A stretch of DNA of 64,000 bases from Thermoanaerobaculia bacterium (GCA_034664845.1 JAXDGW010000027.1:1687-65686); one strand, 5' to 3'. Positions 18,571 to 35,580 are shown, counted from the stretch's first letter. A program made the numbers and translations. Notes: generated by a model from the sequence alone, not told the origin.

Positions 18571-20487
18571 CTAAAACTCGATCTGCGCGCCCAACTCCAC
18601 CACCCGGTTCGGCGGCAGGCTAAAAAATCGCGCGGCGCTCTCCGCGTTGCGGGTCATCGAGGCGAAGAGCTTCTCGCGCCAGGTGGCCATGCCACTCTTG
18701 CGCGAGGTCACGATCAGCGTCTCGCGGCCAAGGAAGTAGGTCGTATCCATTGGCGGAATCGACATTCCGTGTTCGCGGCTGACTCGCTCCAGCAAGGCGG
18801 GGATGTCCGGCTCTTCCATGTATCCGTAGCGGCAGGTGATCCGGTAAATCCCTTCGCCGAGGTCTTCGAGTTGGAGGCGCTCGTCATCGCGAAGATGGGA
18901 GACCTCCTCGCTGACCACCGTCAGAAGGATGACCTGTTTGTGGAGGGCTTTGTAGTGCTTCAGGCTGTGGAGCAGCGCGGAGGGAATCACGTCGCGCGAA
19001 CGGTGCATGAAGACGGCGGTGCCCGGCACGCGCACGGGTGCGTGGCCACGCAGCGACGTCACGAAAACCTCGGGAGTCAGCGCTCCTTCGCGAAGGCGCG
19101 CGTTGAGAATCTTCCGCCCACGGCGCCACGTCGTCATGATCGTGAAGACGACCGCGGCGATGAGCAGCGGGAACCAGCCGCCATCGGCGATTTTGAAGAG
19201 ATTCGCGCCGAGGAAGGCCAGATCGCCGAAGAGGAATCCGGCAGTGATCGCGCCCGCCAGCAAGACGCTCCAGTGCAGTTGGTCGCGCGCCACGACATAG
19301 GCCAGGATCGTCGTGATGATCATCGTCGTGCTGACCGCGACGCCGTACGCGCCCGCCAGATTCGTGGAGCTGCGGAAGCCGATCACGAGCGCGATCGTGC
19401 AGAACATCAGCGTCCAGTTCACGGTCGGCATGTAGACCTGTCCGATCTCCGCTTGCGACGTGTGGACGATCTGCATTCGCGGCAGGTAGCCGAGCTGGAT
19501 GGCCTGCCGCGTCAGCGAAAACACGCCGGAGATGATGGCCTGCGACGCGATGACCGTAGCCATCGTGGCCATGATCACGAGCGGATAGAGCGCCCATTTC
19601 GGAGCGAGCAGGTAGAACGGATTGTGCGCCGCCGACGGCTGCCGGATCAGCAGCGCGCCCTGTCCGAAATAGTGAAGCACCAGCGACGGGCCGACGATGT
19701 TGAACCAATCGACTTGGATCGGCTTTTCTCCGAAGTGCCCGAGGTCGGCGTACAGCGCCTCGCCGCCGGTGGTCACAAGAAAGACCGCGCCGAGAACGAG
19801 AAACCCGTGCATCCCGTTGGCCATGAAAAAGCGAACGGCATGCATCGGATTGACCGCCAATAGAACCGACGGCTGCCAGAGGATGCCGCGGATTCCCATC
19901 ACCGCCAGCGTCGAGAACCACACGAGCATCACCGGCCCGAAAACCGAGCCGACACCGGCCGTTCCCCGGCGCTGGAAGAAGAAGAGAACGACGAGAACGA
20001 GAATCGTCAGCGGGATGACATACGGCTTGAAAAACGGTGTCGCAATTTCGAGCCCTTCCACCGCGCTGAGCACCGAGATCGCCGGCGTGATCATGCCGTC
20101 GCCGTACAGCAGCGCGGCTCCGAAAACGCCGAGGACGATCAAGGTCGCGCGGACGGCGGCCGTCCGGCTCTTGTCCATTCCGACGAGACCCATCAGCGCC
20201 AGAATCCCACCCTCCCCTCGGTTGTCGAATCGCAGCACGTAGATGTGGTACTTGACCATCACCACGAGGACGAGCGACCAGAAGATGAGCGAGAGAATGC
20301 CGAACACGTTCGCCTGTGTCAGCGGCACGGGATGCGATCCGTAGAAGCACTCGCGCATCGCGTAGAGCGGGCTGGTGCCGATGTCGCCGTAGACGATACC
20401 GAGGGCCAGCAGCGATAAGGATAGGAGACGGCGACCCTTCGGCTCTTCGCGTTCGTGATGCGCCGGAAGCACTGCAACTTCAGTCAA
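18571..20487 (-). CDS. kup: Kup/HAK/KT potassium uptake transporter, 638 aa
   Basis: Canonical N-terminus (LALGIVYGDIGTSPLYA) and full-length topology. Confidence 0.9.
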   Translation of the reverse strand: MTEVAVLPAHHEREEPKGRRLLSLSLLALGIVYGDIGTSPLYAMRECFYGSHPVPLTQANVFGILSLIFWSLVLVVMVKYHIYVLRFDNRGEGGILALMGLVGMDKSRTAAVRATLIVLGVFGAALLYGDGMITPAISVLSAVEGLEIATPFFKPYVIPLTILVLVVLFFFQRRGTAGVGSVFGPVMLVWFSTLAVMGIRGILWQPSVLLAVNPMHAVRFFMANGMHGFLVLGAVFLVTTGGEALYADLGHFGEKPIQVDWFNIVGPSLVLHYFGQGALLIRQPSAAHNPFYLLAPKWALYPLVIMATMATVIASQAIISGVFSLTRQAIQLGYLPRMQIVHTSQAEIGQVYMPTVNWTLMFCTIALVIGFRSSTNLAGAYGVAVSTTMIITTILAYVVARDQLHWSVLLAGAITAGFLFGDLAFLGANLFKIADGGWFPLLIAAVVFTIMTTWRRGRKILNARLREGALTPEVFVTSLRGHAPVRVPGTAVFMHRSRDVIPSALLHSLKHYKALHKQVILLTVVSEEVSHLRDDERLQLEDLGEGIYRITCRYGYMEEPDIPALLERVSREHGMSIPPMDTTYFLGRETLIVTSRKSGMATWREKLFASMTRNAESAARFFSLPPNRVVELGAQIEF

Positions 20488-20503: not shown

Positions 20504-20590
20504 GGATCAGAGACGAGAGACTAGAGATCAGAGATCAGGAGTAGTGAAGCGCTGTCCTGATCTCTGATCTTTAGTCTCTTGTCTCTGATT
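20504..20590. repeat. simple-sequence hairpin element (gatcagagacgagagactagagatcagagatcagg / loop / near-perfect reverse complement)
   Basis: Stem of about 35 bp read in sequence. Confidence 0.85.
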
Positions 20591-20653: not shown

Positions 20654-21556
20654 TCAGGCGCGGCACGGCGGCGCGGCAAGCCACGTCGTCTGATCGAATC
20701 GTGTTGCGCCGGCGCTGCCGCTCCAGCGCCATGCTTTGCCGTCGGAGGTTTCGATCTTGAGGTCGATCGGCGTGCCGGCCTCAATCGCCTGCGGCGTCTC
20801 CAACGGTAGAAACGCGTGGCTCCAACTGGTGTCCGGCTTCTCGTTCGAGAGGACAACATCCTCGGCCAGCGTGGCGCGGAACCATCCGGCAAATCCGTGC
20901 AGGAGTCCCGATCGCGCCGCCTCGAAATGCACCGCGCCGTTGACATCAACGCTCTCCACGCTCGCCATCTCACACGAAATGATGCGCTCCGGTGCCGCCA
21001 GAAACGCGCTCGTTTCGACGTTGGCCACGTAGATCGCGTTCGACGCAAACGTCGCCAGCGGCGAGAGATCGAATCCGTATGGCTTTCGCTGCCACCACGA
21101 CACGTGACGGTCGAATAGCACCGGCAGATCGACCGGAACGACGAAGAGCTCGACGCGCTGCGGAATGATTGTCGCGCCGGGCCGCAGCAGACGCGTGCGG
21201 GCATCGATGACGCTGCTGAGGATTCGCTCTTCGAATCCGAACGCGCCCATCGTCTCGGTCACGAGCAGATCGGCCGGCTCCGGAAGCTCGATGTTCGTGG
21301 AGCGGTCGTGGATGACGGTCATACGATCGCCAAATCCGAGGTGCTTCGTCAGGAACATGGCCAGATCGGCGCTGTGCTGATCCTCGACCGCGAACACGCG
21401 CCGCGCGCCGGCCTCGCACGCGAGAAATCCGAGAATGCCCGAGCCAGTGCCGAGGTCGAGGACGACGCTGTCCGGGGTGACGACACGGCGGAGCGCATCC
21501 CGATAGGCGTTGACCCGGACTTTGTCGAGCAGCAGCGTCCGATGAACTTCGAGCAT
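20654..21556 (-). CDS. class I SAM-dependent methyltransferase, protein arginine N-methyltransferase (PRMT)-like, 300 aa
   Basis: PRMT-like motif I region (AYRDAL…VLDLGTGSGILGFLACEAGARRVFAVE) and post-I acidic residue. Confidence 0.65.
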   Translation of the reverse strand: MLEVHRTLLLDKVRVNAYRDALRRVVTPDSVVLDLGTGSGILGFLACEAGARRVFAVEDQHSADLAMFLTKHLGFGDRMTVIHDRSTNIELPEPADLLVTETMGAFGFEERILSSVIDARTRLLRPGATIIPQRVELFVVPVDLPVLFDRHVSWWQRKPYGFDLSPLATFASNAIYVANVETSAFLAAPERIISCEMASVESVDVNGAVHFEAARSGLLHGFAGWFRATLAEDVVLSNEKPDTSWSHAFLPLETPQAIEAGTPIDLKIETSDGKAWRWSGSAGATRFDQTTWLAAPPCRA

Positions 21557-21895
21557 CTACTTCGCCTCAGCGTCGTTGTGCCGCAAAAGGAGAAACAGCG
21601 GCAACGCCAGCGACACGCCGACCGCGAGGTTCGCGACGATGCACAACCACCACAACCGCACCGGCCGTTTGCGCTGCTCGTACGCGATGAATACCCACAA
21701 CGCGACCGACGACACGATCACGTCCGCTGCGAAGAATGACGACCCGGGCGTGGCAAACACCTGCTGCACGAGCAGCGGCAAATTCAATCCGTGCTCGGGA
21801 ACGAATGGCGCGAAGAAGTAGTAAGGAAGCGCCGTGCCGAGGATGCAGAGGACGACGTAGACGTACTTCATGACGGCATGGTAGCGCGGAGGCAT
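21557..21895 (-). CDS. small membrane protein (3-4 TM), hypothetical, 112 aa
   Basis: ORF with TM helices. Its first ~22 codons are duplicated at 32262-32328. Confidence 0.5.
   Translation of the reverse strand: MPPRYHAVMKYVYVVLCILGTALPYYFFAPFVPEHGLNLPLLVQQVFATPGSSFFAADVIVSSVALWVFIAYEQRKRPVRLWWLCIVANLAVGVSLALPLFLLLRHNDAEAK
21822..21895. repeat. left copy of a ~66-bp imperfect direct repeat (gaagcgccgtgccgaggatgcagaggacgacgtagacgtacttcat…atggtagcgcggaggc)
   Basis: Matches 32262-32328 with only a 6-nt divergent patch. Confidence 0.85.
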
Positions 21896-21927
21896 CTGCA
21901 GGTCAGAACTTCCCGAGCAAGAAACGT

Positions 21928-22911
21928 CTATTGCGCGACGACCATCAACCAGATTCCTGCGCCGGGTTTGCCGGACAGTTCGACCTGGAGACGATTCTCA
22001 GACTCGACCTGGACCGGAATGTTGATGACACGAACCTTTGCATTGAAGTCAGACGGGCGCGCTACTTCCACGCCATTGAGAGTCACATGCGCGCTGCTGA
22101 CCGAACCGCCCGGCGACGTCCCGTTGATGATGCGCAAGGTCTTCCGCCCCGGTGCTGAAGCGAAGCTGCTAACTGTCTTTGCCGGGCCGGAAGTACGGCG
22201 GTAGAAAGCCTGCGCATACGCAAACGCGCTTGTGGTGCGAGCGAGCTGTCCGCCTGTAAGCGCATAGACGAGAATGTCGCCATTCGGCGTGATTCTGCCG
22301 CTGTCGTCGCGGTGTACACCCGGAAACGCCAGCAGCGCCAGACGTCCGCTGCCATCCAGGTCCACCGCCGCGACCTGGCTCAACAACGACACTCGCAGCT
22401 TGCGGGCGGCTGCTGTTGGCGAAATGAGTGACAACTGCCCATTACGCCATGCGAAAACCCAGGAGTCAGGGATCAGATATCCATGGCCGCTGGTGAGCCG
22501 CGCGATGATCTCCGGCGCTCCATCGCCGTCGAGATCGATCAGTTCGAGCTCCCCCCTGAACCCTTTGAGAAACGGCATATCCGGATGAGAAAGAACTCTC
22601 CCGCTGCGATCAAGTACGCTGATACCTGCTCGGGTTCCGTTCGTGTACAACGCAACGATAAGTGGCTGACCATTGCGATTCAGATCACCCGCCACGAATG
22701 TTGAGAATCGCGACGGCGCCTCGGGGTCGCGCGACGCAAACAGGTCCGCAGGATAGGCGTTGTCGACGAGTTGCTCGTCGGACACCTGCGCCCACGCCGA
22801 AACGCTGGACAGCGCAAGAACAACCAGGAACGTAAAAGTGCGTATGCGGAAGGCTCGGTCTCCTAGGGAACACCGCGAATGCACGCGGCGCGCTCCACAA
22901 AAACGCTGCAA
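21928..22911 (-). CDS. secreted FG-GAP/VCBS-like repeat protein, 327 aa
   Basis: Signal peptide; DLDGDGAPEI / DLDGSGRLAL Ca-binding-loop-like repeats. Confidence 0.5.
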   Translation of the reverse strand: MQRFCGARRVHSRCSLGDRAFRIRTFTFLVVLALSSVSAWAQVSDEQLVDNAYPADLFASRDPEAPSRFSTFVAGDLNRNGQPLIVALYTNGTRAGISVLDRSGRVLSHPDMPFLKGFRGELELIDLDGDGAPEIIARLTSGHGYLIPDSWVFAWRNGQLSLISPTAAARKLRVSLLSQVAAVDLDGSGRLALLAFPGVHRDDSGRITPNGDILVYALTGGQLARTTSAFAYAQAFYRRTSGPAKTVSSFASAPGRKTLRIINGTSPGGSVSSAHVTLNGVEVARPSDFNAKVRVINIPVQVESENRLQVELSGKPGAGIWLMVVAQ

Positions 22912-23036
22912 GCGCGATCAAAGCAACTAATCATTGCACACCATCCCGGAAATCATTGATGTGGGCGGCCTTTACAGATGCCAGTGTCTGTATACGTGCG
23001 ATTGCTCCGCGTGTCATTGAGCATCCGCTTGCGCCA

Positions 23037-23964
23037 TCACGTGCGCAGGCGCAGGAGCGCCGCTATCGCCGCGGCGAGCGCGAGCAACGCCAGAACCAGC
23101 GGCGAGAGCGCCGGAATCGCCTGGACATCGGCACCGACCACGGCGATGCCGGATATTGTCCCGGTTCCAACGTCGAACGGGCCCGCGGCAATCACGTCGT
23201 TCTGAAGGTCGAACTTGGCAGCCCCACCGAGGAAGGAGACCCAGACGAAGTTGGGGGAGACGTCGCGTCCAAACGGGACGGCATGTGTTGCATAGTGCCG
23301 AAGGATCGTGCCGTCCGTTCCGACGCGGTACATGTCGGCGAAGAACGTACTCGCCAGGAGCGTCCCATCGGAAAGAACGAGAAGGGTACGCCCAGTGTCG
23401 CCGAGTGGAGCCGATAACGGTGTCAGCATCGTATTGTGGCAAACATCGAATCTGCCAATCTGATTCATGGAGAGCGTGAAGTGGTAAAGGGTGCATTGGT
23501 CCAGACCCAGATCGGCCCGTTGAGAAGAGCTGCCAAGGGAGCTCACGCCCTGTTGAGTCCCCTGACTGTTGAACTTCAGAACGTGTCCGCCGCCGGTGGT
23601 AGCAAACAGATTGCCGGAACGATCGAAGGCGAGGGTTTTCGGGCTGTATGGAGATGTAGGATCGGGGTAAGCATGCTACCGTCGCTCGCAAAGCGAAAGA
23701 CGCTCGCTCCAGCTGCCCGTAGAGAATGCCACTCGGACCGAATTTCAGGTCCGTCGTATAGTCGTCTCCGGAATAGAACTCGTAAATCAGCGACCCGTTC
23801 GGCGCAAACTGGCGGATGGTGCCGATGAAGACAGGGAAATTGCCTACAAGAGTATACGACACGCCGCCAACGATCACGTCACCGGGATGAAACACCGCAA
23901 ATGCGGACCCCTCGCTACACAAAGACACCGTCAGGGCGAGCAAAATGATTGCTCTGACTTTCAT
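23037..23964 (-). pseudogene. frameshifted paralog of the 313-aa beta-propeller partner protein (second copy of the tandem duplication)
   Basis: The N-terminus (MKVRAIILLALTVSLCSEGSAFAVFHPGDVIV…GILYGQ) and the C-terminus (…GIAVVGADVQAIPALSPLVLALLALAAAIAALLRLRT) align to gene 24389-25330, but the reading frame changes around 23690-23720. Confidence 0.55.
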
Positions 23965-24392
23965 TGCACACCATCCCGGAGATCGTTGATATGAGCGGCC
24001 TTTACAATAGGGCCGGCATCGATATACGTGGCGGCACGCAGCCCCAGAGCGGTACGCGCGGAATTGAGCGCCGAGCGAAGCTCCGAAATGTGTACCGAGC
24101 GAATGAGGAACCCACTGGCCAGTCCTGGGTCTGTGAACGAAAATGGCGTGGTGAAGCCCGCTGCCATTCGTACTGAATTCACCACGGTCCGGAGTTCGGT
24201 GATATCGACCGCTGCGATGGTGTCTCCCACCGTTACATGATTCCCTGCGCCCGAGTGTGTGTAGTGGTTCGTCGTGGCAAGATCGGGCGCCGACCACGCC
24301 GATGCGAACGGCGGCCGGACCGCGCGCACCTGGTAGACATAGGCAGTATTTCGTGTCAGCGAAAACCCACTGTTCAGCCCACGCTTTTTCAC
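23961..24392 (-). pseudogene. duplicated fragment of the S8 peptidase C-terminal domain (143 aa; GTG start overlapping the upstream stop)
   Basis: …NTAYVYQVRAVRPPFASAWSAPDLATT…VKAAHINDLRDGVQ is colinear with the last ~135 aa of the 1080-aa subtilase. Confidence 0.55.
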
Positions 24393-25330
24393 GTGCGCAG
24401 CCGCAAGACTGCCGATATCGCCAAGGCGACCGAAAGGATAAGCTGGAGGAGCGGGGCGAAAGCCGGAATTGATTGCACATCGGCACCGACGATGGCGATA
24501 CCGGTGATTGAGCCGGTCCCTACGTCGAAAGGCCCTGCGGTGATCACATCGCCCGTTAGGTCGAACTTCGCAAATTTCCCAAGGACCATGACCCAGACAA
24601 AATTGGGGTTAGTGTCGCGAGCATACGCTGAGGCGTGGGTTGAATAATGGCGAAGCACGGCGCCGTCTAAGCCGATGCGATACATATCCGACTGGTTTGT
24701 GCTCGCGAGAAGAGTTCCGTCGGCGAGGACGAGAAGCGTCCGGTCAAGGTTCACGGTGGTTTGCAGCGGCGACGATAACGTACCACTGCAGGTATCAAAT
24801 CTTCCGATCCTTGACGCGGGCGATGTCAAGAAAAAGAGTGTGCACTGATCCAGGCCCAGATCGGCCCATGAGGACACGCCAGTTCCCAATGATGAAACTC
24901 CCGCTGGATTGCCAGCACTGTCAAACTTGAGCACGGCTCCGTCCGGTGAAGTGGCAAAAAGACGACCGGATCGCGCGAATGCCAGCGAGTGCATGAAGTA
25001 GCCGGTCGAGGCAGGCTGAAGCGGCGGGAGCGTGCTACCGTTATCCGCGAACCGAAGAACGATCGTTCCGGCGGCGCCGTGAAGAATACCTTGGGGGCTG
25101 AACTTGAGGTCGTCGGCGCCAATATTGTCGCCCGAGAATAGTTCCTCTATCAGTGTGCCGTCCGGGCCAAACCGCCGAATCTTGCCGACAAACGCTAACG
25201 GGTTTGGCTCATTCACTGGTCCCTCCACGGTGCTAACGATGATCTCTCCGGGATGGAACGTTGCGAACGCCGCCGGCGTGCCCCATAACGATGCGCTAAG
25301 AATGACCGCCGCAATCACCCGGCCCCTCAT
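24389..25330 (-). CDS. secreted beta-propeller (NHL/SMP-30-like) protein with a C-terminal hydrophobic anchor ending LRLRT, 313 aa
   Basis: Signal peptide; repeated GxxLxFxxxG blade-like motifs. C-terminus IPAFAPLLQLILSVALAISAVLRLRT. ATGA overlap with the subtilase stop. Confidence 0.6.
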   Translation of the reverse strand: MRGRVIAAVILSASLWGTPAAFATFHPGEIIVSTVEGPVNEPNPLAFVGKIRRFGPDGTLIEELFSGDNIGADDLKFSPQGILHGAAGTIVLRFADNGSTLPPLQPASTGYFMHSLAFARSGRLFATSPDGAVLKFDSAGNPAGVSSLGTGVSSWADLGLDQCTLFFLTSPASRIGRFDTCSGTLSSPLQTTVNLDRTLLVLADGTLLASTNQSDMYRIGLDGAVLRHYSTHASAYARDTNPNFVWVMVLGKFAKFDLTGDVITAGPFDVGTGSITGIAIVGADVQSIPAFAPLLQLILSVALAISAVLRLRT

Positions 25331-28300
25331 TGAACACCATCCCGAAGATCGTTGATGTGTACCGCCTTTACGGTCGTGGAGGAATGAATCAATTGGGAGT
25401 CGGTATACACGGCCGCTGCCAGACCAAGCGAGTTCCGAGCCGCGTCAAGGGCGGCGCGGAGTTGAGAAATATCCTCAGCGTGAATGACCGCTCCAGCGAG
25501 TGATCCGTTCGGATTGCTTGGCAGAATAGGTACGTACTGGGGCAGGCTGGCTGCCGCACGCACAGAATTAACGACGGCTCGTAACTCGACTATGTCTGTC
25601 GCCGCCATAACGCTACCAGCGACGATATGATGATTCGCATCAGCATGCGTGTAGGCGCTTGTCGTGGCAAGATCGGGCTCCGACCACGCGGATGCGAACG
25701 GCGGGCGGGTCGCGCGCACCTGATAGACGTATGCGGTATTGGGTGTCAGCAGAGCCCCGCCATCCGTCAAGCTGTCGAAGGAAGTGGCCGTCACATGCAC
25801 CGGCGTACCGTACGTGCTTTCCCCGTTCAGGCCACTCTTCCGGCGGATGTCGTAGCCCAGCGGCGCCCCGCTGACCGGTGACCACGAAAACGTGATTCTG
25901 GTCGATGAGGTGCTATCAAGAGGGCTTATCACGGGAGTACCGAGCGGAAGAGAGGTAGAAGCTGCATCATAGGCATTGTACGCCACGAGAGCAAAAGTCT
26001 GGGCGGAATTGGCCATACCGCTCGCGTTGGTGACGTACACGGTGAATGTCGTCCCGGCAGGAGCAAAGAATCGAGCAATTTCGGCGTTGTTGAGCACGTC
26101 GGCTGGAAGGTTTGCATTGTTGCATCCGTAGTCGAAGGATACCTCTCCTTGTGTCGTGTTCTCGATGACCAACTTGTTACCCACGAAACGTTTGCCACAG
26201 GGAGTGCCGAGATCTACACGCAGATCAAGATCATTCACCAACGGCGTGGTGGTGGTCTGTCCGGGACTAAGCACAGCGGGTGGATCGGACCAAACGAGGG
26301 CAATCTTCACCGGGAGGGTGGCATCATGAACGGTTAGCGTCCTGGTCCACTGGGCTGTGGGCGTGAGAAGCGAAGACGGCGGTTCATTCACAAAATAGCG
26401 GAAGGGATATGGCGACAACACATCCTCAAGACTGATTCTGCCGAAGCCCTGCTGATTGTTTGGGAATACTCCTATCGGTTGTGATTCCACGGTGTATTCA
26501 GGTTCCGCGAATGGTGCATAAAGAAGATTCTTTTCGGCGCCGCCGGCCATGCTGCGCGCCCCAGCGATTAGCATCGCTTTGGTCAGCGATGGGCGAGAAG
26601 AGTACGGGATGCAAGGCGACACTGAGGAGCCGTGACATCCGGGATTTACGGCCTCTTCGTAGAAACGGCGGGCGAGCAGGGCAGCACCCGCAGCGACCGG
26701 GGCGGCAAAGCTGGTGCCTCCGCCTGCGACGTAGTCAGAGCCGGCCACCAGAGGTGAAGAATTGGATGGTGTTGGCCTGCATTGAGCGCCGTCGTCATGA
26801 GGGTATGACTCAGCCTGGGATCGAGTGGAGACGATGTTCTCGGCAGGCGCAAAGAGGTCGGGTTTGTACCAGCCCGTGGTCAGTGTTCCCCTCATGGAGT
26901 TTGCCGCGATGTTCTCGAAGCTGTTCTGGCCGCAAAAGTGACACTGCCATTGCTCGAGGGAACTTCTAGGTATTTCCGCTGAGCCTACGGATATGACGTT
27001 CTTTGCAGTCCCTGGCGGGAGTGTGAACTTACGGGTGCTTGCACACGGGTCGGTGTGGTGTAAACGATCTATCTGGCCGATCTGATTGCCGGCTGACACC
27101 GTAAGTACGATAGGATCGATGCTGCTATTGAATAGTCCGTTATCCGCATCAATGACCGATTGGTCAAATTGCTGAGAAAGAACAGAATAGGTGCCTCCGT
27201 AGCAAGGCGAGGAGCCGTACTGGTTGTAAGAGTGATTCTGCACTCTCACATCATCTTGACCAGCGGGTTGGCTGGCGGCATCGTGCGCATATGCAAACGT
27301 ACCTGTTGGCGACGAGCTTCTCGAGATCTTGGTGACGTAGACGCCTGCACTCGGTGCGACACCGGTGGCGTAAAAATAGCCTCCTGGGTAGTCGGTCGCC
27401 GTTGCATTCGTAGTGTCGCCCGTGGCGATCCCGGCGATCATGGTGCCGTGCGAACTCGTATCGACAAGGTCGGCACCCGGGCTGTCGAAGTTGGTACCGA
27501 AGCGAACCTTTGGCCCTGGCAGCGCCGGATTATGACGGCCATTGGTCGCTCCGTCGTCCAAGCCGCTCGCGTCGGCTACACCCACCCAGAAATGATCATC
27601 CTGCAAATGCGTGCAGAAGGGACAGATGCCGTCCAGCCAGGCCTTGTAGGAGCCGGGATTCGCCGGCGCCCGCGCCTCAGGTCCACCGCTGACATTCCTC
27701 GTTAGCGAGAGGGCAACTCGTTCGTCGGACGGCTGCAGGATCGGCGCTTCCACCACGCAGAACACCAGCGGGCTTGCCACGATATCGGGGAGATCGCGCG
27801 CAGCGAATGACGCCTGCAGGTCGAGCTGGCCCGCCGAGGCGCGCCGCGTGGTGACCTTGCTGCTGGCCCGGGCGCCCAGGGAGTCCATGAATGCGTCCAC
27901 GCCGGGGGCGTCGATGAGTTGCACGATGAAATCGCGGATGTCGCCCTCCTTGCCCGGCTGCGGATGAACCTTCAGTCCCACATGCAGCATGTCTACCAGT
28001 TGGACGAACGGGAGCTTTTCGGCGGTCCGCATCACCTCCGGCGTGCCAGCGACGATGTAGGCGTTATAGGGGATGTATTGCACGAGCTTCACGCCGAGGG
28101 ACTCGACCTGTTTTTCCCACTCGGGCTTGATCGGTCCGGCGAATTGCAGGATGTAGGCGCCCCACTCCCCCTTTTTGTACGGTGCGCTTCGCTGCAGTCC
28201 GGGAAGCGATCCTTCCACTCCTCGCCGGGCATCGATCGTTCCCTCGGGGAGGAAGATTTTGTCGAAGTCGTCGCGGGGACGGATTTCTACGCGCAGTTCT

Positions 28301-28569
28301 GCGGCCCGATCGGAAAGACCCTTCAACGTGTCGGTCAGAAAGTAGGCGACCGTCTGCGTCTCGTACTCCTGCACGATCTCGCCCCCGCCCTTCTGAACGA
28401 CCTCCGCCGCAGCGCTGGCATTCGGCAGCATCATCAGGTTCTTGCTGATGACCACTTTTGTATGACCCTCGCGTGCGCTGAAGGCAGCGACCGGGCTGGC
28501 CGCGCCGGCAACGATTGCCACGGCGAGCAGTAAAAAGAGATGGCGATTGAAGCATCGTCTAAGAGTCAT
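25327..28569 (-). CDS. secreted subtilisin-like serine peptidase (S8) with propeptide and C-terminal Fn3-like domains, 1080 aa
   Basis: His motif DTSSHGTMIAGIATG, Ser motif GGTSFAAPVAAGAALL, signal peptide, Fn3-like ITFSWSPVSGAPLGYDIRR. Confidence 0.85.
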   Translation of the reverse strand: MTLRRCFNRHLFLLLAVAIVAGAASPVAAFSAREGHTKVVISKNLMMLPNASAAAEVVQKGGGEIVQEYETQTVAYFLTDTLKGLSDRAAELRVEIRPRDDFDKIFLPEGTIDARRGVEGSLPGLQRSAPYKKGEWGAYILQFAGPIKPEWEKQVESLGVKLVQYIPYNAYIVAGTPEVMRTAEKLPFVQLVDMLHVGLKVHPQPGKEGDIRDFIVQLIDAPGVDAFMDSLGARASSKVTTRRASAGQLDLQASFAARDLPDIVASPLVFCVVEAPILQPSDERVALSLTRNVSGGPEARAPANPGSYKAWLDGICPFCTHLQDDHFWVGVADASGLDDGATNGRHNPALPGPKVRFGTNFDSPGADLVDTSSHGTMIAGIATGDTTNATATDYPGGYFYATGVAPSAGVYVTKISRSSSPTGTFAYAHDAASQPAGQDDVRVQNHSYNQYGSSPCYGGTYSVLSQQFDQSVIDADNGLFNSSIDPIVLTVSAGNQIGQIDRLHHTDPCASTRKFTLPPGTAKNVISVGSAEIPRSSLEQWQCHFCGQNSFENIAANSMRGTLTTGWYKPDLFAPAENIVSTRSQAESYPHDDGAQCRPTPSNSSPLVAGSDYVAGGGTSFAAPVAAGAALLARRFYEEAVNPGCHGSSVSPCIPYSSRPSLTKAMLIAGARSMAGGAEKNLLYAPFAEPEYTVESQPIGVFPNNQQGFGRISLEDVLSPYPFRYFVNEPPSSLLTPTAQWTRTLTVHDATLPVKIALVWSDPPAVLSPGQTTTTPLVNDLDLRVDLGTPCGKRFVGNKLVIENTTQGEVSFDYGCNNANLPADVLNNAEIARFFAPAGTTFTVYVTNASGMANSAQTFALVAYNAYDAASTSLPLGTPVISPLDSTSSTRITFSWSPVSGAPLGYDIRRKSGLNGESTYGTPVHVTATSFDSLTDGGALLTPNTAYVYQVRATRPPFASAWSEPDLATTSAYTHADANHHIVAGSVMAATDIVELRAVVNSVRAAASLPQYVPILPSNPNGSLAGAVIHAEDISQLRAALDAARNSLGLAAAVYTDSQLIHSSTTVKAVHINDLRDGVQ

Positions 28570-28651
28570 TCGCAGCTTCCGGAAAGAGATGGATCTGAAT
28601 ATAGGAGTGTCATCAGGAGCTCAAATACCTACCCACTCGCTTCAAAAGAGA

Positions 28652-28900
28652 CTAAAGGGTGACGCTGGGATCGTCGTCATCGCCTAGGTTGAAAAGTTGA
28701 TTTGCTTTGATTGGCTCGCTGGTTAGGCTGCGCACGGCCCGGACAATTCTGGCGATGACGCGTTCACTGGGTACCGCGAGGCCGAAGCGATAGCGGGCGA
28801 ACTGCGAGCGATGCATGGGAATGGCGGTCCAGATTTCAGTGAGGGAGATGCCGCGCTCCTGGATGAACCTTTCGAGGCGGGTGCCGCGGTGCACGATCAT
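28652..28900 (-). CDS. small hypothetical protein, possible HTH (MIVHRGTRLERFIQERGISLTEI…)
   Basis: ORF only; weak HTH-like pattern. Confidence 0.25.
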   Translation of the reverse strand: MIVHRGTRLERFIQERGISLTEIWTAIPMHRSQFARYRFGLAVPSERVIARIVRAVRSLTSEPIKANQLFNLGDDDDPSVTL

Positions 28901-29540
28901 TGCGTCACCTCGCAGTTCGGTATTGAGAGTCCGTTCATATGACGGGTTGTAAGTGAACTGGTGGCAACTGGCGGCGGCACGCAGGGAGAGAGAATTGACT
29001 GGTCCATCACTTCGCGTCGCTCGGCACGGCACAACCAGAGGAGGTCGCGCGCCTCAGGCGTGGGGTCCCGCCGCCAGTTGCCATAAACAAAATGCGTAGT
29101 TACTTTGGCGATTTCGAACATGGAAGCCCGGCTCAGTCCGAAATCTTTTTCATGATGCAGTTCACCTGTTCGAAGGCAGCGAGGATCTGAGGCCCGAGCC
29201 ATGATTTGTCGTATGCAGCGCCGCCCTCTTCCTCACAGATTTGCATCGCCTCATCGATTGCGACCATGGCATCCGCCAGACGATCGTTCACGCGTTCGAG
29301 CAACGGAAGGTTCGCGAATTCCCCAAACGCGCCGGCGGCTAGCTGCGGCCAGCGTTTCGAAACGAGCGATCTGGAGTAAGGAAGCGGCATCGGGATTTCT
29401 CTCCGTCTTTTTAGCGGAACCTGTGACGCGCGTCTACGCACATTTCGTAACCCACTGGGTAGAACGCACAGAGCGGCCAAGTTGTTTTTGCCGGCGGGGG
29501 GTAGGGAAGTTTCGACTTCCATCACTCCTCAGACAAAGAG

Positions 29541-30110
29541 ATGACTTCCCTTGCCTCAGATCGTTTGGCGGACGCCGGCAGCGTGGCCGTCGAAGCGCTG
29601 GCCAATAGCGTTGACTGCGACGCCGCAGCGCTTCGCTTTGACGCCTTGTACGCCGCGTATAGGCCCCTGCTCCGAAAGATTGCGATCCGAAAGTTTGGCG
29701 TCGCGGTTTCCGATGCCGAGGACCTGGTGCAAGACGTCTTCGCTACGTACCTTGCAAATCCCTCGAACGTCCGGGAGCTGCATCCTTATCTCATCGGGGC
29801 CATCTGCAACGCCTCCCGGCAATTCCGGCGGCGAAACGAATCCTCCCCGTTTTGTCCCAGCAGTGCGTGCGGCGCCACACCGGATGACGAGCTGGTCGAC
29901 GGCGTCGTACGGAATGTGGTGATTGCAGCCACGCTCTCTCGCCTCGGCGCGCGCTGCCGTGAGACGCTGGAGCGTTTCTATCTGAACGGGGAAACGGCCG
30001 TCTCCATCGCCGAAAGCCGCGACACCTCGGCGGGATATATGTGGCGTCTTCTCAACTACTGCCGCAATCGCGCGCAAGCGATTTACCGGCAGATGAGCGC
30101 AGGCTCATGA
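29541..30110 (+). CDS. ECF-type RNA polymerase sigma-70 family factor, 189 aa
   Basis: Region 2 (…DAEDLVQDVFATYL…) and region 4 HTH (…ETAVSIAESRDTSAGYMWRLLNYCRNRAQ). Confidence 0.8.
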   Translation: MTSLASDRLADAGSVAVEALANSVDCDAAALRFDALYAAYRPLLRKIAIRKFGVAVSDAEDLVQDVFATYLANPSNVRELHPYLIGAICNASRQFRRRNESSPFCPSSACGATPDDELVDGVVRNVVIAATLSRLGARCRETLERFYLNGETAVSIAESRDTSAGYMWRLLNYCRNRAQAIYRQMSAGS

Positions 30111-31471
30111 CCGTGAAGCACGTCGCCGAAACGGTCTTGGGGTTATATGCACTGGAGCCGGCACTGGTGCCGAGCCGTGCCGATATTGAAGCCCACCTCG
30201 CAGCCTGTGACGACTGTCGCTCGGCGCTTGCCACCATCAGGACGTTCGACGCCGCGCTCGCTGAGGTGGACGCATGGCCTGCGAATTCGACCGACGCGGA
30301 TCATTCGGCATCGGTCGAGCAATTGCGCGCGTTCGCAGCTCGTTCCGCCGAGGAAGATCGTGAGGCGCTGCGACTTCTGGCTGAATATGAGGAGACGGAT
30401 GCCGCGCCCCGGTTTGTGTGGGCCGACATCCCGAGCAAGGCGGAGTACCGGACCGGCGGCGTGGCACGTCTGCTCTGCAAGCGGGCGAACGGAATGTGTA
30501 CGCGCAAACCGCTTTATGCGCTCGCTCTCGCCGAGGCTGCTGTGCGGATCAGTGCGAACCTCCCCGATGCGAGTTATCCGCGGGCGACCATCCACGAGCT
30601 CCGAGGCGAGGCGTGGAAGGAGCAGGCGAATGCGCTGGTCAGTCTGGGGCGATTTGATGAAGCGCTCGACGCCCTTGCGCACGCGGAAGCCGAATACCGC
30701 CAGCTTCCGCATGAGGGCCTCGGCTTGGTCGCCGTCACGTTTGTCCGCGCGACCATCCTGTACGAACAGGAGCATTTGGAGTCCGCGGATCAGCTTGCGC
30801 GCGACTCCGCAGACGCAGCGCTGCATCTGGGGTCAACTGACCGCTGCATGCGAGCTCTGCACCTCCAAGGGCAGATCCGGCATCGACGCGGCGACCTACT
30901 GGGCGCAGTCCACCTCTTCGAAAGAGTCTTGCACTACGGAGAGGGGATCGATGACCACCGATGGATTGCGCTTGAAACGCGTGCCCTCGGCGTTTGTAAC
31001 ATCGAATTGATGAATGCTGCGGAGGCGAGCAGCTATCTCTCCACATCCCTCCGACTGTGTACCGGATTGGATTCTGCTGTGGAAGTGACGCTCACACAGT
31101 GGGCGATCGCTCGTCTCACGTTCTTGCAAGGCAATCCGGAGGACGCAATTCGCCGACTCCGCAGCGTCGTCGGAGAGCTGACTCGCCAAGGCATGCTGAC
31201 TGATGGGGCCATCGCGTCGGTCCATCTCGCCGAAATCCTGCACGCAGTCGATCGGACACGTGAGATCCCCAAACTACTTGCTGGAGTGGTGCAGACCTTC
31301 GTTGCTGCAGGGATGCTGAACGGCGCCCTCTCCGCCCTCGCCTACCTGAAAGAGGCGGCGACGGCAGGCCCGATTACACCGGCGATGTTCTCGTACGTTC
31401 GGCAGTTCATTGCGCGCGCCGAGCGCCAGCCTGCTCTTCTTTTCGCGCCACCACCGAAATCGCCAGTGTAA
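30107..31471 (+). CDS. anti-sigma factor candidate: N-terminal zinc-finger (HLAACDDC) plus TPR-like repeat domain, ~454 aa
   Basis: ATGA overlap with the sigma gene. HxxxCxxC ZAS-like motif; helical-repeat-rich remainder. Confidence 0.55.
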   Translation: MTVKHVAETVLGLYALEPALVPSRADIEAHLAACDDCRSALATIRTFDAALAEVDAWPANSTDADHSASVEQLRAFAARSAEEDREALRLLAEYEETDAAPRFVWADIPSKAEYRTGGVARLLCKRANGMCTRKPLYALALAEAAVRISANLPDASYPRATIHELRGEAWKEQANALVSLGRFDEALDALAHAEAEYRQLPHEGLGLVAVTFVRATILYEQEHLESADQLARDSADAALHLGSTDRCMRALHLQGQIRHRRGDLLGAVHLFERVLHYGEGIDDHRWIALETRALGVCNIELMNAAEASSYLSTSLRLCTGLDSAVEVTLTQWAIARLTFLQGNPEDAIRRLRSVVGELTRQGMLTDGAIASVHLAEILHAVDRTREIPKLLAGVVQTFVAAGMLNGALSALAYLKEAATAGPITPAMFSYVRQFIARAERQPALLFAPPPKSPV

Positions 31472-31898
31472 GGATTCACTCCTCCCCGACACTCCACCGA
31501 ATTCGAGGGTGCCCTCCCATGACTCGCCGGCAATGCCGGTCAGAAGGAGGGCTGTATGCAGAGCGTTTCTCGAAGGTTCGGCCGCATGGCGGCAGTACTC
31601 GTAGTGTCTTCGCTCCTCGTTACGCAGGGCGCGTTCGCCTCCGCGCGGCAGGAGGATCGCGGCGGCTGGTTCGCGCGGGCGAAGCAGATTGTCGTCAGGA
31701 TCCTCTCGGAAATCGGTACACCCAAAGGTTAGGAACGATTCGGATACCGCTGGAGGCGGGAGGCATTTGCGCCACGCCTCCAGCAAGGTTACGAAATGAG
31801 GGTGGGACTCTTCCCGGCCCGCGACACTCCTTAATGAGACGCGGCGTTGCCTGGAGGAACGACACTGATCGCATGTTGGCCGCCACGTCTGCTGCCGG

Positions 31899-32303
31899 AT
31901 GCGGAAGCCCACTTCAAGGAAGCGAGTCGCAAGTTCACGTGACGCCGACCGGCGGCGTTTCGAGCGAGCGGCGGAACTGTACCTTCATGCCTGCTACGGC
32001 ACGAAGACGGCAGCGCGGGCCGATGAGTTTGCAACCTATCTCCGCCTGACACGGCCGTACTTAAGCCGCCTCGTTCCGGATCTGATCGGGATGCCGCTCC
32101 GCGATTATCTTCGCGGACAACAGCTCGCGTACGCACAGCACCTGCTCCGAACGATGCCGCTCACAGTCACAGTCGATCAGATCGCGCTCGCCAGCGCCTT
32201 CGGAACGCCGTGGACGTTTTACCGTTGTTTCAAAGACGCGTTCGGAACGACGCCCGCGAAGTTCCGACGAAGCGCCGTGCCGAGGATGCAGAGGACGACG
32301 TAG
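31899..32303 (+). CDS. AraC-family HTH domain protein (HTH-only, N-terminal ligand domain absent), 134 aa
   Basis: AraC HTH_18-like C-terminal pattern (…LRTMPLTVTVDQIALASAFGTPWTFYRCFKDAFGTTPAKFRR). Its 3' end runs into the right direct repeat. Confidence 0.5.
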   Translation: MRKPTSRKRVASSRDADRRRFERAAELYLHACYGTKTAARADEFATYLRLTRPYLSRLVPDLIGMPLRDYLRGQQLAYAQHLLRTMPLTVTVDQIALASAFGTPWTFYRCFKDAFGTTPAKFRRSAVPRMQRTT

Positions 32304-32328
32304 ACGTACTTCATTAGGGCATGGTAGC
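32262..32328. repeat. right copy of the ~66-bp direct repeat; encodes a truncated duplicate of the first 22 codons of gene 21557-21895 on the minus strand
   Basis: Direct sequence match; no ATG precedes the copied codons. Confidence 0.85.
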
Positions 32329-32367
32329 GCGGAGGCCCGGCGAGGCGGCAGGTACAATCCTCCCCGG

Positions 32368-33168
32368 ATGACGCTCCTCCTCGGCTTCTACGCTTTCGCG
32401 ATCGGTGCCATCGTCGGCAGTTTTCTCAACGTCGTCATTCACCGCTATCCACGCGAGGAGTCGATCGTTTTTCCGGGCAGCCATTGCCCGCAGTGCAACG
32501 CTGCCATTCGCTGGTACGACAACATCCCCGTCCTCAGCTTCCTGATCCTGCGCGGACGCTGCCGCGCGTGCGGTGCTCGCATCGCCTGGCGCTATCCGCT
32601 CGTCGAGCTGGCCAACGCTCTTTTCTATCTCGCGACATTCCTTCGCACCGGGCCTACCGTCGCCTTCGTCATCATCGCAGCGATCATCTCGATGACCATC
32701 ACGCTGATCTACATCGATGCCGACATCCAACTGCTTCCTGACGTGATCGACATTCCCGGCATCGCCCTCGGACTCGCCGCCGGCGCTCTTGGCCTCGGCA
32801 TCCTCCACCCCAACCTCGTCCTCGCGGATTCGTTGCTCGACTCACTCTTCGGCGCGCTCCTCGGCGCCGCGATTCCGCTCGTCATCATCGGCACCTACTG
32901 GCTCGTTCGCCGCGCCGAGGGGATGGGGATGGGAGACGTGAAAATGCTGGCGATGATCGGCGCCGTCACCGGATGGCGCGCTGTGCCTGGCGTGCTGCTG
33001 GGCGCGTCGGTCACCGGCGCGCTGATCGTGCTTCCCGCCGCGTTGCGCAGCAGTCACGGCATGCGCCTGATGCTGCCGTTTGGCGTCTTCCTCGGCATCG
33101 CGTTTTTGGGCGTTCTCTTTTTCGGCCCTACACTTGCGGGATGGTACGTTTCGCTCGCGTTCCGCTGA
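32368..33168 (+). CDS. pilD: prepilin peptidase / N-methyltransferase (A24 family), 266 aa
   Basis: N-terminal CxxC…CxxC zinc motif (CPQCNAAI…CRACGARI) and polytopic membrane C-domain with a catalytic Asp region. Confidence 0.9.
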   Translation: MTLLLGFYAFAIGAIVGSFLNVVIHRYPREESIVFPGSHCPQCNAAIRWYDNIPVLSFLILRGRCRACGARIAWRYPLVELANALFYLATFLRTGPTVAFVIIAAIISMTITLIYIDADIQLLPDVIDIPGIALGLAAGALGLGILHPNLVLADSLLDSLFGALLGAAIPLVIIGTYWLVRRAEGMGMGDVKMLAMIGAVTGWRAVPGVLLGASVTGALIVLPAALRSSHGMRLMLPFGVFLGIAFLGVLFFGPTLAGWYVSLAFR

Positions 33169-34859
33169 CCCGCGTCGGGTTTCGCCGGGACGTGAACCTT
33201 TTTCTCACCGGCCTGGTTGGCTTCCTGGTCGTCCTGATCTTCACCCTGCTCCTCCTGCTCAACACCAACCTGGCACACACGGCGGAGGCGATCGACCGCT
33301 CGCATCAGATGATCGCGGATGTCTCTGCCGAGGCGGTGAACCGAAGTCCACCGTCAGCGCTCGGCACGGAGATGCTGGTGCTTCGCGGACGCTTCAACAT
33401 CGCCGGGATCGGCATCAAGGCTCGGGACGGACGCACGTTCGAGTCGGGACTGCGCGCCGGTGAGATACACGATGGGGATTTCGATGTCGTCACCAGACTC
33501 GCCGGCCCGGGTACGCTCACCCTTCGTTTCGACGCCTCGGCGCGCCGAGCCGCGCACCGCGACTTCGTCATCACTGCCGCGATCTGCATCGCTGCGGCGA
33601 GTCTCGGCATCGCGCTGCTGCTTTTCTATCTTCCGCGCCTCACAGGCCCGATCGAACAGATGCTCGACGACGCACGGCAACTCGGCGCTCCGGGCGACCA
33701 GGAGGAGACCGCCTATCTCATCGATACGTTCCGAAGCTCGATCGCGACGCTGAAGAGCCAGGAGGACGAGCTCAAACGGATGCACGACCGCGAGAAGAGC
33801 CGCGCGGACGAGTTGGAGGTCGTGACAGGAGCCCTCACGCGCAGTCTCACTTCGGGGCTGATCGTCATCGACTCCACCGGCGCAGTCGCCGACATCAACG
33901 CCTCGGGCCGCGAGATTCTCGGCCTCGACGCCGCGGCATCCGTGGCCGGCCTCGATCTGCGGCAGGGGATTCCACTGCCCGCCTTCGCAAACAAACTGCA
34001 CGACGCATTCGCGAAGCGCGCGGCCATGAGCCGGATGGAGATCAACGATGCGCAGCCGCTCACCGGCGAGCCGGTCGTCATCGGCCTCACCACGGTTCCG
34101 CTCCGCAACAAGGCCGATGCCTTCCTCGGATTTCTGGCGCTCTTCACCGACCTCTCGCCGATCCGCAGCCTCGAGTCACGCGTCCAGGAGATGACGACTC
34201 TGGCGCAGCTCGGCGAGATCTCGGCCGGCATCGCTCACGAGTTTCGCAGCTCGCTCTCGACGATCCTCGGCTACATGAAACTGGCGCGCAAGGGAGGCGT
34301 GGACGACATCGCAGAGTTGCGCTTGAAGAGTGCGGAGAAAGAAGCCTCGCTCCTCCTGCAGGCCATCGAGCGCCTTCTCGCCTTTGCCGGGCCGGTGCAG
34401 CTCAACGCGGAGACGGTCGATCTTCGTGCGCTGCTTTCCGAGCAGATCGCACAAATGACCGACATCGACTCCGAGATCGCAGTGACGCTCGACGGCCCCG
34501 CGATCACCATCGAGGGTGACCGCATCCTCCTCGGACGCGCGCTCGAAAACCTCCTGCACAACGCCGCGGACGCCGTTCGCCAGAATGGTGGCGGCTCGAT
34601 CGCCGTCACGCTGCGCGACCGGCCGCACATGTCGGTCACGATCGCGGACGACGGCGTCGGTTTCGATCCCGCCGACGGGCCTCGCTTTCTGCTCCCCTTC
34701 CAGTCGAACAAGCCCAACGGCTTCGGAATGGGTCTTCCGCTGGCAAAAAAAATTGTACTTGTGCACGGGGGAACGATCCGCCTGGACAGCCGGGAGGGGC
34801 AGGGCGCGGTCGTCACCGTGGAGTTTGGCGCGTCAGGCTTCCCACTTCCAACCGGCTGA
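33141..34859 (+). CDS. sensor histidine kinase (PilS-like position): TM / PAS-like / HisKA / HATPase, ~572 aa
   Basis: H-box IAHEFRSSLSTILGY, G2 box GFGMGLPLAKKIV. Start chosen at MVRFARV. Confidence 0.75.
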   Translation: MVRFARVPLTRVGFRRDVNLFLTGLVGFLVVLIFTLLLLLNTNLAHTAEAIDRSHQMIADVSAEAVNRSPPSALGTEMLVLRGRFNIAGIGIKARDGRTFESGLRAGEIHDGDFDVVTRLAGPGTLTLRFDASARRAAHRDFVITAAICIAAASLGIALLLFYLPRLTGPIEQMLDDARQLGAPGDQEETAYLIDTFRSSIATLKSQEDELKRMHDREKSRADELEVVTGALTRSLTSGLIVIDSTGAVADINASGREILGLDAAASVAGLDLRQGIPLPAFANKLHDAFAKRAAMSRMEINDAQPLTGEPVVIGLTTVPLRNKADAFLGFLALFTDLSPIRSLESRVQEMTTLAQLGEISAGIAHEFRSSLSTILGYMKLARKGGVDDIAELRLKSAEKEASLLLQAIERLLAFAGPVQLNAETVDLRALLSEQIAQMTDIDSEIAVTLDGPAITIEGDRILLGRALENLLHNAADAVRQNGGGSIAVTLRDRPHMSVTIADDGVGFDPADGPRFLLPFQSNKPNGFGMGLPLAKKIVLVHGGTIRLDSREGQGAVVTVEFGASGFPLPTG

Positions 34860-35004
34860 GCGTTCACACTGCTACCTTTTGTGGCAGTCAGCCCCCGACT
34901 CGGACTTCGTCGGATCGGCAGGCGTTGGCGTAAACTATTCCTGTTCAACCATTTGACCGCGACGCCGGTGTGTGGCACCCGCGTCGCACAAGGGAGCGTT
35001 CCTC

Positions 35005-35580
35005 ATGAGAAAGCAAGCGCGTCGATTGGAGGCCGGGTACAGCCTCACGGAACTGCTGACCGTGGTCGCCATCATCGCAGTCATGTCCCTGATCACCGTC
35101 CCGTCGTTCATCAGCTACAACAATTCCAACAAGATCAAAGTGGCCATGCGAGCATTCAGCGCGGACCTTCGAACCGCGCGCGCGACGGCGATCTCTCAGG
35201 GGCGTGAAGTGAAGTTGACCTTCAAGACCGGCGCGAACCTTCGAAACTACAGTTTGTACCTTGGCGACCGCGCCTTTGGAACGGTACCGACGGCAAACTG
35301 GACGCCCCTCACAGGCGCCGGCTCGAGCTCTGCGCGGGCCTTCAAGACTCTCGATCCGGTTATCTATTTTCCTGATGATGGGACGTCGACACCGCAGACG
35401 TTTACCGATCTCGACCCCACGCCCGATGGCTGGCTCGACGTCATATTTTTCCCCGACGGGCACGCGCAGCTACCAACCGGCGCGACTTCGGGAACCATCA
35501 CCATCAAGACCGACATGAGAGTACCGAAGGTGTCGTACGCGATCACCATCAGCCCCAGCGGCCGGGTGCTGGCGCAGTAA
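35005..35580 (+). CDS. type IV minor pilin / pseudopilin, FimT/GspH-like, ~191 aa
   Basis: Class III signal: …EAG|YSLTELLTVVAIIAVMS with Glu+5. Confidence 0.7.
   Translation: MRKQARRLEAGYSLTELLTVVAIIAVMSLITVPSFISYNNSNKIKVAMRAFSADLRTARATAISQGREVKLTFKTGANLRNYSLYLGDRAFGTVPTANWTPLTGAGSSSARAFKTLDPVIYFPDDGTSTPQTFTDLDPTPDGWLDVIFFPDGHAQLPTGATSGTITIKTDMRVPKVSYAITISPSGRVLAQ

Follow-up and report, generated by a model that had tools for sequence, protein, structure and literature searches.

The 64,000-nucleotide stretch of DNA analysed here (the window; GCA_034664845.1, JAXDGW010000027.1:1687-65686) belongs to an uncultured soil Thermoanaerobaculia bacterium of the phylum Acidobacteriota and is carried on a 128-kb JGI metagenome contig (3300044722, Ga0467039_0000060). 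Between the divergent genes for a small DUF2834 membrane protein and the prepilin peptidase PilD, the window harbours an island of 10,375 bp, which was inserted in this lineage only and duplicated its target. The island is bounded by direct repeats of 68 nt, lacks mobility genes and has its right-hand junction within the coding sequence of an AraC-type regulator. In the following we document the insertion and its limits, describe the genes within and around it, and weigh the mechanisms that might account for its entry.

An insertion that duplicated its target

The empty site was compared in five independent relatives, namely the loci L008, L004, L009, L005 (with L006, L007 and L016) and L017, which encode DUF2834 proteins 88%, 83%, 82%, 79% and 76% identical to that of the window, respectively. 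In all five, pilD and the DUF2834 gene are divergent neighbours, spaced by 52-54 bp in four cases and by 145 bp in L005, and neither an insert nor a repeat is found between them. The order of genes in the relatives (histidine kinase and pilD, then DUF2834, a PRMT-like methyltransferase and Kup) is collinear with both flanks of the window, and the homology of the chromosomal DNA ends at 21891/21892 and picks up again at 32269-32271. Together with the empty sites, this break therefore defines positions 21894-32268 as a lineage-specific insertion with target duplication. An earlier interpretation of the window, made from the sequence alone (the sequence-only reading), had suspected an insertion or recombination event that split the 5' end of a gene, and had proposed to look in related genomes for a direct adjacency of this gene and pilD; the relatives bear out this view.

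The base composition of the island, which the sequence-only reading had likewise proposed to check against the flanks, is distinct. The GC content at third codon positions (GC3) of the island genes ranges from 0.63 to 0.73 (mean 0.68), compared to 0.73-0.87 (mean 0.82) for the surrounding core genes (Mann-Whitney p = 0.0003). Moreover, the tetranucleotide correlation of the island (0.945) is the lowest of all 10.4-kb stretches in the window, the others reaching 0.959-0.991.

The two repeat copies are identical at 66 of 68 positions and lie 10,443 bp apart, with mismatches at 21872 (G/T) and 21874 (C/G). Their perfect 45-nt core (21827-21871, corresponding to 32270-32314) occurs twice in the window, while zero occurrences are expected (100 shuffles). 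A generic repeat can be dismissed, since only these two copies of the 68-bp sequence are present in the window, and no contig of the viral and proviral collection IMG/VR contains the DUF2834 5' sequence. In the left copy the 5' end of the DUF2834 gene is still working, and the right copy is a dead duplicate. All relatives share with the left copy the motif GTCATG at the start codon; the CTAATG of the right copy is unique and derived. Apart from these two derived changes, both copies match the ancestral target over all 68 nt. Hence, the direct repeat that the sequence-only reading had recognized is real, yet its identity is higher than the 60 of 66 positions given there, and the right copy had been placed about 7 nt too far to the left. 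Similarly, the left copy was correctly seen as the 5' end of a gene plus flanking DNA, but it includes 15 codons and 22 nt upstream of the ATG at 21871 rather than some 22 codons.

This start codon follows from two observations: the DUF2834 profile begins at residue 12 of the longer open reading frame (ORF) annotated at this site, and the closest homologues mostly comprise 104 amino acids (aa). The match to the profile (PF11196) is full-length (positions 1-95 of 96, E = 7.3e-30), and 832 homologues were found. The longer ORF of 112 aa, found in both the JGI and the NCBI annotation, begins with an ATG (21895-21893) lying across the junction, and is thus an artefact that the insertion produced. 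For many DUF2834 homologues the alignment covers just 84% of the query; alternative N-termini supplied by islands were considered and dismissed, as the N-termini are homologous throughout and the short coverage is due to divergent C-terminal tails. On the opposite side of the island, the pseudo-ATG of the right copy (32314) is 53 bp away from pilD, the ATG of which lies 31 nt beyond the repeat, and the antisense strand of the right copy provides the final 10 codons and the stop codon of the AraC-type ORF.

An assembly chimera appears unlikely, because the same structure appears to be present in an NCBI metagenome-assembled genome (MAG), to judge from its proteins, and part of it in a contig from another run. 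The NCBI MAG encodes the identical junction-spanning 112-aa ORF (MEA2236265.1) and an identical S8 protease (MEA2236270.1); the two accessions are five apart, a spacing that fits the gene order in the window. These proteins imply the same left junction and gene order in an assembly with a different longest contig (162,877 versus 127,972 bp). The short Logan contig L003, which stems from the other run, contains the right-copy variant adjoining pilD and ends inside the perfect core, as would be expected where a repeat exceeds the k-mer of the assembler.

Genes of the island and its surroundings

The features of the island and its immediate flanks are compiled in Table 1. The gene content is as the sequence-only reading had described it, with a secreted FG-GAP protein, a partly duplicated subtilase region, small helix-turn-helix (HTH) genes, a pair of genes for a putative extracytoplasmic function (ECF) sigma factor and an anti-sigma-like protein, and an AraC-type gene.

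Table 1. Coordinates of the island, the repeat copies and adjacent genes in the window
Feature	Position	Strand	Remarks
Kup	18571-20487		after the PRMT-like methyltransferase gene
PRMT-like methyltransferase	20654-21556	-	conserved, downstream of DUF2834
DUF2834 membrane-protein gene, 104 aa	21557-21871	-	target gene, intact; Pfam
Left repeat copy	21826-21893	-	functional DUF2834 5' end: codons 1-15 (ATG 21871) and 22 nt conserved upstream; ancestral GTCATG
Inserted segment, 10,375 bp	21894-32268	.	absent from all relatives; empty-site comparison and composition
Secreted FG-GAP-repeat protein	21928-22785	-	leftmost island gene; stop codon 34 nt from island end
Decayed "orphan" duplicate	22931-24392	-	S8 C-terminal fragment, disrupted 313-aa paralogue and third copy of S8 3' end
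Secreted protein, 313 aa	24389-25330	-	no family match; partner gene of S8
S8 subtilase, 1080 aa	25327-28569	-	secreted; fn3-like region
Small ORFs between cargo and sigma gene	28652-29525	-	82-aa ORF with weak HTH_31, 74-aa ORF, 85/130-aa ORF
ECF-type sigma factor	29541-30110	+	Sigma70_r2
Anti-sigma-like protein, 454 aa	30107-31471	+	weak zf-HC2, TPR
Small ORF, 58 aa	31556-31732	+	58-aa ORF at matching position (anti-sigma to AraC) in L021 and L023
Stand-alone AraC/MarA-size regulator, 134 aa	31899-32303	+	complete HTH_18; native to ~32267-32276, tail from repeat
Right repeat copy	32269-32336	-	dead duplicate of DUF2834 5' end; two derived substitutions (CTAATG)
pilD (prepilin peptidase)	32368-33168	+	conserved right-hand neighbour; divergent from DUF2834 in ancestral state

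The right 3.2 kb of the island (~28959-32267) constitute a conserved module, which is 79-87% identical at the DNA level to the loci L021, L022, L023 and L024. The sigma factor scores above the Pfam cut-off for Sigma70_r2 (E = 8.5e-7) and below that of TIGR02937 (36.8 versus 42.9 bits), and the zf-HC2 match of the 454-aa protein (18.7 bits) is likewise below its cut-off of 22.2 bits. The sigma/anti-sigma gene pair and the 85/130-aa ORF are kept with the module in L021-L023, and the stretch encoding the 58-aa ORF lies within ~80-87% DNA homology to the L021 and L023 loci. The small ORFs at 28652-29525 revealed no signature of a mobility gene, and the 313-aa, FG-GAP and 58-aa proteins received no name from NCBIfam.

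The AraC-type ORF had been taken for a truncated fragment, which is not the case. It possesses an entire double-HTH DNA-binding domain (HTH_18; residues 45-124 match profile positions 2-79 of 80) and lacks a sensor domain, as is typical of the stand-alone MarA/SoxS-size subgroup of the AraC/XylS family. Most of 93 close homologues are stand-alone proteins of ~120-130 aa, with the closest ones mostly at 124-130 aa, such that the junction replaces only the last 3-6 native codons and the stop codon. All 14 homologues inspected at their C-termini stop 3-6 residues after (F/Y)R, often with ..SA(L/P)* (tails ..RSAL*, ..SSAL*, ..ISAP* or ..TNAPS*); the protein of the window ends in ..FRR-SA-VPRMQRTT*. 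Since the DNA homology of the module to the closest locus, L021 (87% at the nucleotide level), ends at 32267, these tails place the right junction inside the AraC-type coding sequence. The "SA" (AGCGCC) of the tail is probably native. If so, GAAGCGCC (32269-32276) would represent up to 8 nt of microhomology between donor and target at the junction, as suggested by the homologues rather than by the donor, and the true duplication would amount to 60-68 nt. None of the homologous modules in L021-L024 and L026 contains DUF2834-like sequence after the AraC-type gene.

The left part of the island carries secreted cargo. Homologues of the FG-GAP protein (63-75% identity) are found in unrelated contexts, and the homology ceases ~10 nt past the stop codon. 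Between this gene and the pair of S8 protease and 313-aa partner lies a decayed duplicate of the latter two, including a C-terminal S8 fragment (23961-24392; 57% identical to residues 936-1080, the last ~145 aa), a disrupted paralogue of the 313-aa gene (23037-23546; 63%) and, just upstream of the FG-GAP gene, a third copy of the S8 3' end (46 nt, 22931-22976). The second copy (22931-24392 versus 24389-25760) is displaced downstream of the intact pair. Orthologues of the S8 protease reside beside ECF sigma and anti-sigma genes in L025 and L026, in L026 along with an AraC-type gene. In L025 the S8 gene is followed by a 312-aa ORF without Pfam match, which was compared with the 313-aa gene by position alone. 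A further S8 paralogue of 627 aa (P0221, NCBI QOC81_693), 73% identical over 56% of the island protease, is located on an 85-kb contig of apparently the same MAG; a second copy of the island DNA is absent from the 64-kb window.

Beside the module, L022 and L023 carry divergently transcribed cargo, i.e., Rhs/YD-repeat and other secreted proteins in place of the S8 protease. This variation of cargo next to the same module between genomes, as well as the composition of the island, favours a foreign or flexible origin. To judge from its adjacency, the sigma factor presumably controls the cargo. The island is thus best described as a mosaic, self-regulated locus for secreted proteins that belongs to the flexible genome of the clade, and not as a recognizable mobile element.

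The short region shared by the two target genes is itself conserved, as all Thermoanaerobaculia relatives keep the 20 nt that precede the DUF2834 ATG. Hexamers resembling a -10 box precede the start codons of both genes by 6-9 nt without a Shine-Dalgarno sequence: TACAAT for pilD (32354-32367) and TACCAT for DUF2834 (21872-21885). The latter, 7 nt before the ATG, is kept in all Thermoanaerobaculia relatives. The hexamers might hint at leaderless mRNAs. However, a consensus scan called neither a sigma-70-type promoter nor a terminator at either repeat copy, including both hexamer sites, and therefore the notion of TACCAT as the -10 box of a leaderless mRNA is speculation.

The neighbourhood of the DUF2834 gene seems to be a hot spot of gene acquisition. 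In L004 (10312-17316) and L008 (1670-2554) a different insert of ~7 kb separates the DUF2834 and methyltransferase genes, which abut in the window, L005, L009 and L017. The insert encodes a TPR protein, a GT2 glycosyltransferase, a GH26 protein and a CarboxypepD_reg protein, among others. The insert lacks a long flanking repeat, and a general mechanism of long duplications was accordingly rejected.

Further away, pilD heads a large cluster for a type IV pilus or a type II secretion system (T2SS)-like machinery (32368-51438), which includes a PAS histidine kinase, a T2SSF platform protein, a T2SSE ATPase, a secretin with a cohesin-like C-terminus as well as GspH-like and other N-methyl pilins, among them proteins of 1028 and 848 aa. 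The minor-pilin genes of this cluster also show a low GC3 (0.67-0.76). An inverted repeat (20506-20589) with 35-nt arms, 94% complementary and rich in AGAGA/GATCAG, is situated in the intergenic region that separates the methyltransferase gene from Kup and has no match in Rfam; a similar AGA(A/C)ATCAGAGACAAGAGA tandem occurs at the same place in L004 (18364-18398). A HicA toxin/HicB-like antitoxin pair and a CopG-like ORF (17835-18566) are situated between an amino-acid permease gene and Kup, and other genes (DUF218, CusF) take their place beyond Kup in L005 and L006. A gene for an MbnB/TglH/ChrH-family enzyme (E = 3.6e-109) that modifies ribosomally synthesized and post-translationally modified peptides (RiPPs) is followed by genes for DUF2063 and DoxX proteins (7128-8802, minus strand), a locus that may form a small RiPP or copper-related cluster. 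It adjoins a tRNA-Sec gene (6513-6610, minus strand; ARAGORN; Rfam 71 bits), the only Rfam hit over the window. In the more distant relative L011, an FG-GAP homologue, tRNA-Sec (5172-5269) and pilD directly follow one another in this order; in the window they lie 15-26 kb apart. A link to this arrangement was rejected, because an inversion cannot yield direct repeats; nothing else is shared, and TonB/ExbBD are missing from the window.

Mode of entry

Domain searches (Phage_integrase, Resolvase, DDE) did not detect an integrase, resolvase, transposase or excisionase in any island ORF, in agreement with the sequence-only reading, and recombinase or transposase domains are absent from all candidate ORFs of the 64-kb window. 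A decayed integrase was also sought with the tyrosine integrase of L022 (tblastn against the window) and dismissed, the best E value being 0.49. Terminal inverted repeats pairing the island ends were not found; an imperfect inverted match of 12 out of 15 positions, noticed by eye, has unequal offsets and one arm within conserved AraC coding sequence, and was judged to be due to chance. The reconstructed empty site lacks a perfect dyad.

Two related loci carry elements reminiscent of integrative islands. In L022, the 3' end of a tRNA-Asn gene adjoins a tyrosine integrase of 405 aa together with an ORF of 73 aa (15384-17257), next to a divergent tRNA-Cys gene and ~5 kb from the module; a second attachment (att) copy of tRNA-Asn was not found within the 20-kb locus. 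In L023 (10519-10546), the AraC-type gene is followed after ~135 nt by a tRNA-like 3' fragment made up of T-arm, acceptor strand and CCA (ACGGGTTCGAATCCCGTATGCGCTACCA). Neither ARAGORN nor Rfam recognizes a full tRNA at this place, and the end of the Logan contig L024 falls exactly on the CCA. This fragment may represent what is left of the att site of an island that targets tRNA genes and bears the same module.

The explanation we favour, with a probability of about one half, is a one-off, illegitimate insertion of the microhomology type, which was independent of a recombinase and generated a long target duplication. On this view, a fragment of ~10.4 kb from a related Thermoanaerobaculia genome would have entered once, in this lineage only, where pilD and the DUF2834 gene share a short divergent control region and 5' end. 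This DNA would have brought along the sigma/anti-sigma/AraC-type module and the divergently transcribed secreted cargo (S8 subtilase, 313-aa partner and FG-GAP protein). It might have been end-joined into a break with staggered ends of ~60-68 nt, which were then filled in, or else a replication template switch might have returned ~68 nt upstream of its departure point; either process would duplicate the target. After the duplication, the DUF2834 gene would retain its start codon and the conserved 22-nt upstream element in the left copy, and pilD would keep 99 nt of ancestral upstream DNA, made up of the right copy and 31 nt. The event would have been tolerated, because each gene kept its own copy of the control region, and the dead right copy would later have gained its two substitutions. 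A plain insertion into a spacer of only 53 bp would part one of the genes from its control region, and thus selection may have acted as a filter for the duplicating event.

Several points weigh against this explanation. A duplication of ~68 bp far exceeds what prokaryotic transposition or end-joining is known to produce, and a search of the literature for long target duplications at illegitimate insertions in bacteria yielded no directly relevant precedent. The microhomology is drawn from homologues that stand in for the true donor sequence. Direct repeats including the end of a gene are the textbook signature of attL and attR, and both mismatches fall into one copy, only 2 nt apart, as would fit a heterology between attP and attB near a crossover within 21875-21893. 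Furthermore, the AraC-type gene of L023/L024 is followed by the tRNA-like fragment, and the module of L022 neighbours an integrase and tRNA-Asn; sigma/anti-sigma/AraC modules may therefore ride on integrative islands.

The gene-end repeats, the clustered mismatches and the surroundings of the modules in L022-L024, along with the distinct composition of the island, speak for a decayed site-specific island akin to a cis-mobilizable element (CIME), an alternative we regard as possible, albeit on the unlikely side. An element with a tyrosine or serine integrase, since deleted or acting in trans from another part of the genome, would have recombined between the DUF2834 5' end as attB and a 68-bp look-alike attP located between the convergent AraC and FG-GAP genes. 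Integration into a 5' end has a precedent in the SXT/R391 family's integrative and conjugative elements (ICEs), which target prfC (PMC5812530), and the name CIME is in use for elements that have att flanks but no integration genes (PMC5704250). Yet, neither a recombinase, an excisionase nor a remnant thereof is left in the island or the window, and both island ends coincide with 3' ends of cargo genes instead of an int-att arrangement. An attP at this place would run into the AraC-type gene and shorten it in comparison with all homologues, a fusion which itself calls for an illegitimate joint. As the left copy has the ancestral GTCATG, a crossover would be confined to the 19 nt upstream of this motif, and the 45-nt coding match would then play no role in restoring the gene. 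Finally, homologous modules are devoid of such a sequence, the site is empty in five of five relatives and without another occupant there or in the viral collection, and both repeat copies agree with the ancestral target from end to end. On balance, the evidence on the mechanism, which the sequence-only reading had left open between att-like integration with subsequent loss of the integrase and duplication-mediated capture, leans against classical att-site integration.

Other routes have less in their favour. A Campbell-type single crossover by RecA, involving a circle that already carried a short DUF2834-5'-like stretch, for instance after imprecise excision in a sister strain, would create the observed geometry, and the CTAATG variant could then derive from the donor. 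The perfect 45-nt block exceeds the usual minimum length for RecA recombination. This route is nonetheless improbable, as it requires an earlier AraC-DUF2834 fusion and so only pushes the problem back; CTAATG is native in none of the relatives, and no replicon or circular form was seen. Even more doubtful is an intrachromosomal relocation through a large tandem duplication, which would have newly joined the AraC 3' end to DUF2834 codon 15, and a later internal deletion, after which one copy of the 68 bp would have remained on each side of the segment. Bacterial genomes are commonly rearranged by a tandem duplication and a subsequent deletion, and both junctions look illegitimate. However, two events are required, the window has no further copy of island sequence, the straight-through assembly suggests a single copy, and the composition is unlike that of the neighbouring core genes. 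We consider it very improbable that the segment is ancestral and was lost in the relatives, or that it is a chimera, against which the assembly evidence above speaks. Recombination between the 68-bp repeats would restore exactly the empty site of the relatives; but since the lineage of the window is nested among empty-site relatives (76-88% DUF2834 identity), at least five independent losses would be needed, and an old, unconstrained pseudo-copy should have accumulated more than 2 differences in 68 positions. A last and improbable idea takes the module and its interchangeable secreted cargo for a novel mobile "regulon cassette" of Thermoanaerobaculia, which has no integrase of its own and inserts through a mechanism duplicating ~68 bp or through a trans-acting recombinase that targets gene ends. 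The homology of the module stops at or just before the AraC 3' end in the window, L021, L022 and L023/L024, and the targets could be the DUF2834 5' end here and the tRNA-like 3' fragment in L023/L024.

Relation to known systems

The insertion provides a base-pair-resolved case, with the empty site at hand in five relatives, of how flexible content in the form of a self-regulated secreted-protease locus entered the genome of an uncultured soil acidobacterium. As a single case in a metagenome-assembled genome, its value is mainly descriptive. Should a mechanism that duplicates 60-68 bp prove recurrent, it would constitute a new way to gain DNA with two divergent promoters kept intact.

With islands of the SXT/R391 type the feature shares a multi-kb size, a distinct composition, the absence from relatives, flanking direct repeats and an intact target gene hit at its 5' end. 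Here, as in integrative islands generally, the direct repeats restore the target gene's end. In contrast to such islands, it contains no integrase, excisionase or transfer genes, its 68-bp repeat matches the ancestral target throughout, one of its junctions truncates a cargo gene, and a small survey (five relatives, related modules and viral contigs) revealed neither recurrent use of an att site, by another occupant or otherwise, nor an attP in related elements. CIMEs are similar in that they are flanked by repeats and devoid of a recombination or transfer module. However, they share their att sites with a cognate functional ICE or integrative and mobilizable element (IME) at the same target; neither the window nor the relatives contain such an element or integrase, and the membership of the island in this class is accordingly unproven.

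Transposons and insertion sequences are likewise flanked by direct target duplications. Known prokaryotic target duplications measure ~2-15 bp, compared to the 60-68 bp of the island, which moreover has no transposase and no terminal inverted repeats. The displaced C-terminal S8 fragment and the partner-gene paralogue downstream of the intact pair resemble the "orphan" cassettes of Rhs arrays and of contact-dependent growth inhibition (CDI) systems, although a toxin/immunity function is not evident for the S8/313-aa pair. Parallels are also offered by ECF sigma/anti-sigma regulated loci for secreted proteins, as the conserved sigma/anti-sigma/AraC module is placed beside interchangeable cargo, S8 here and Rhs/YD proteins in L022 and L023. 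Taken together, the feature is a genomic islet specific to the strain, with its target duplicated at either end, which is unusual only in the length of this duplication, given that no recombinase is present.

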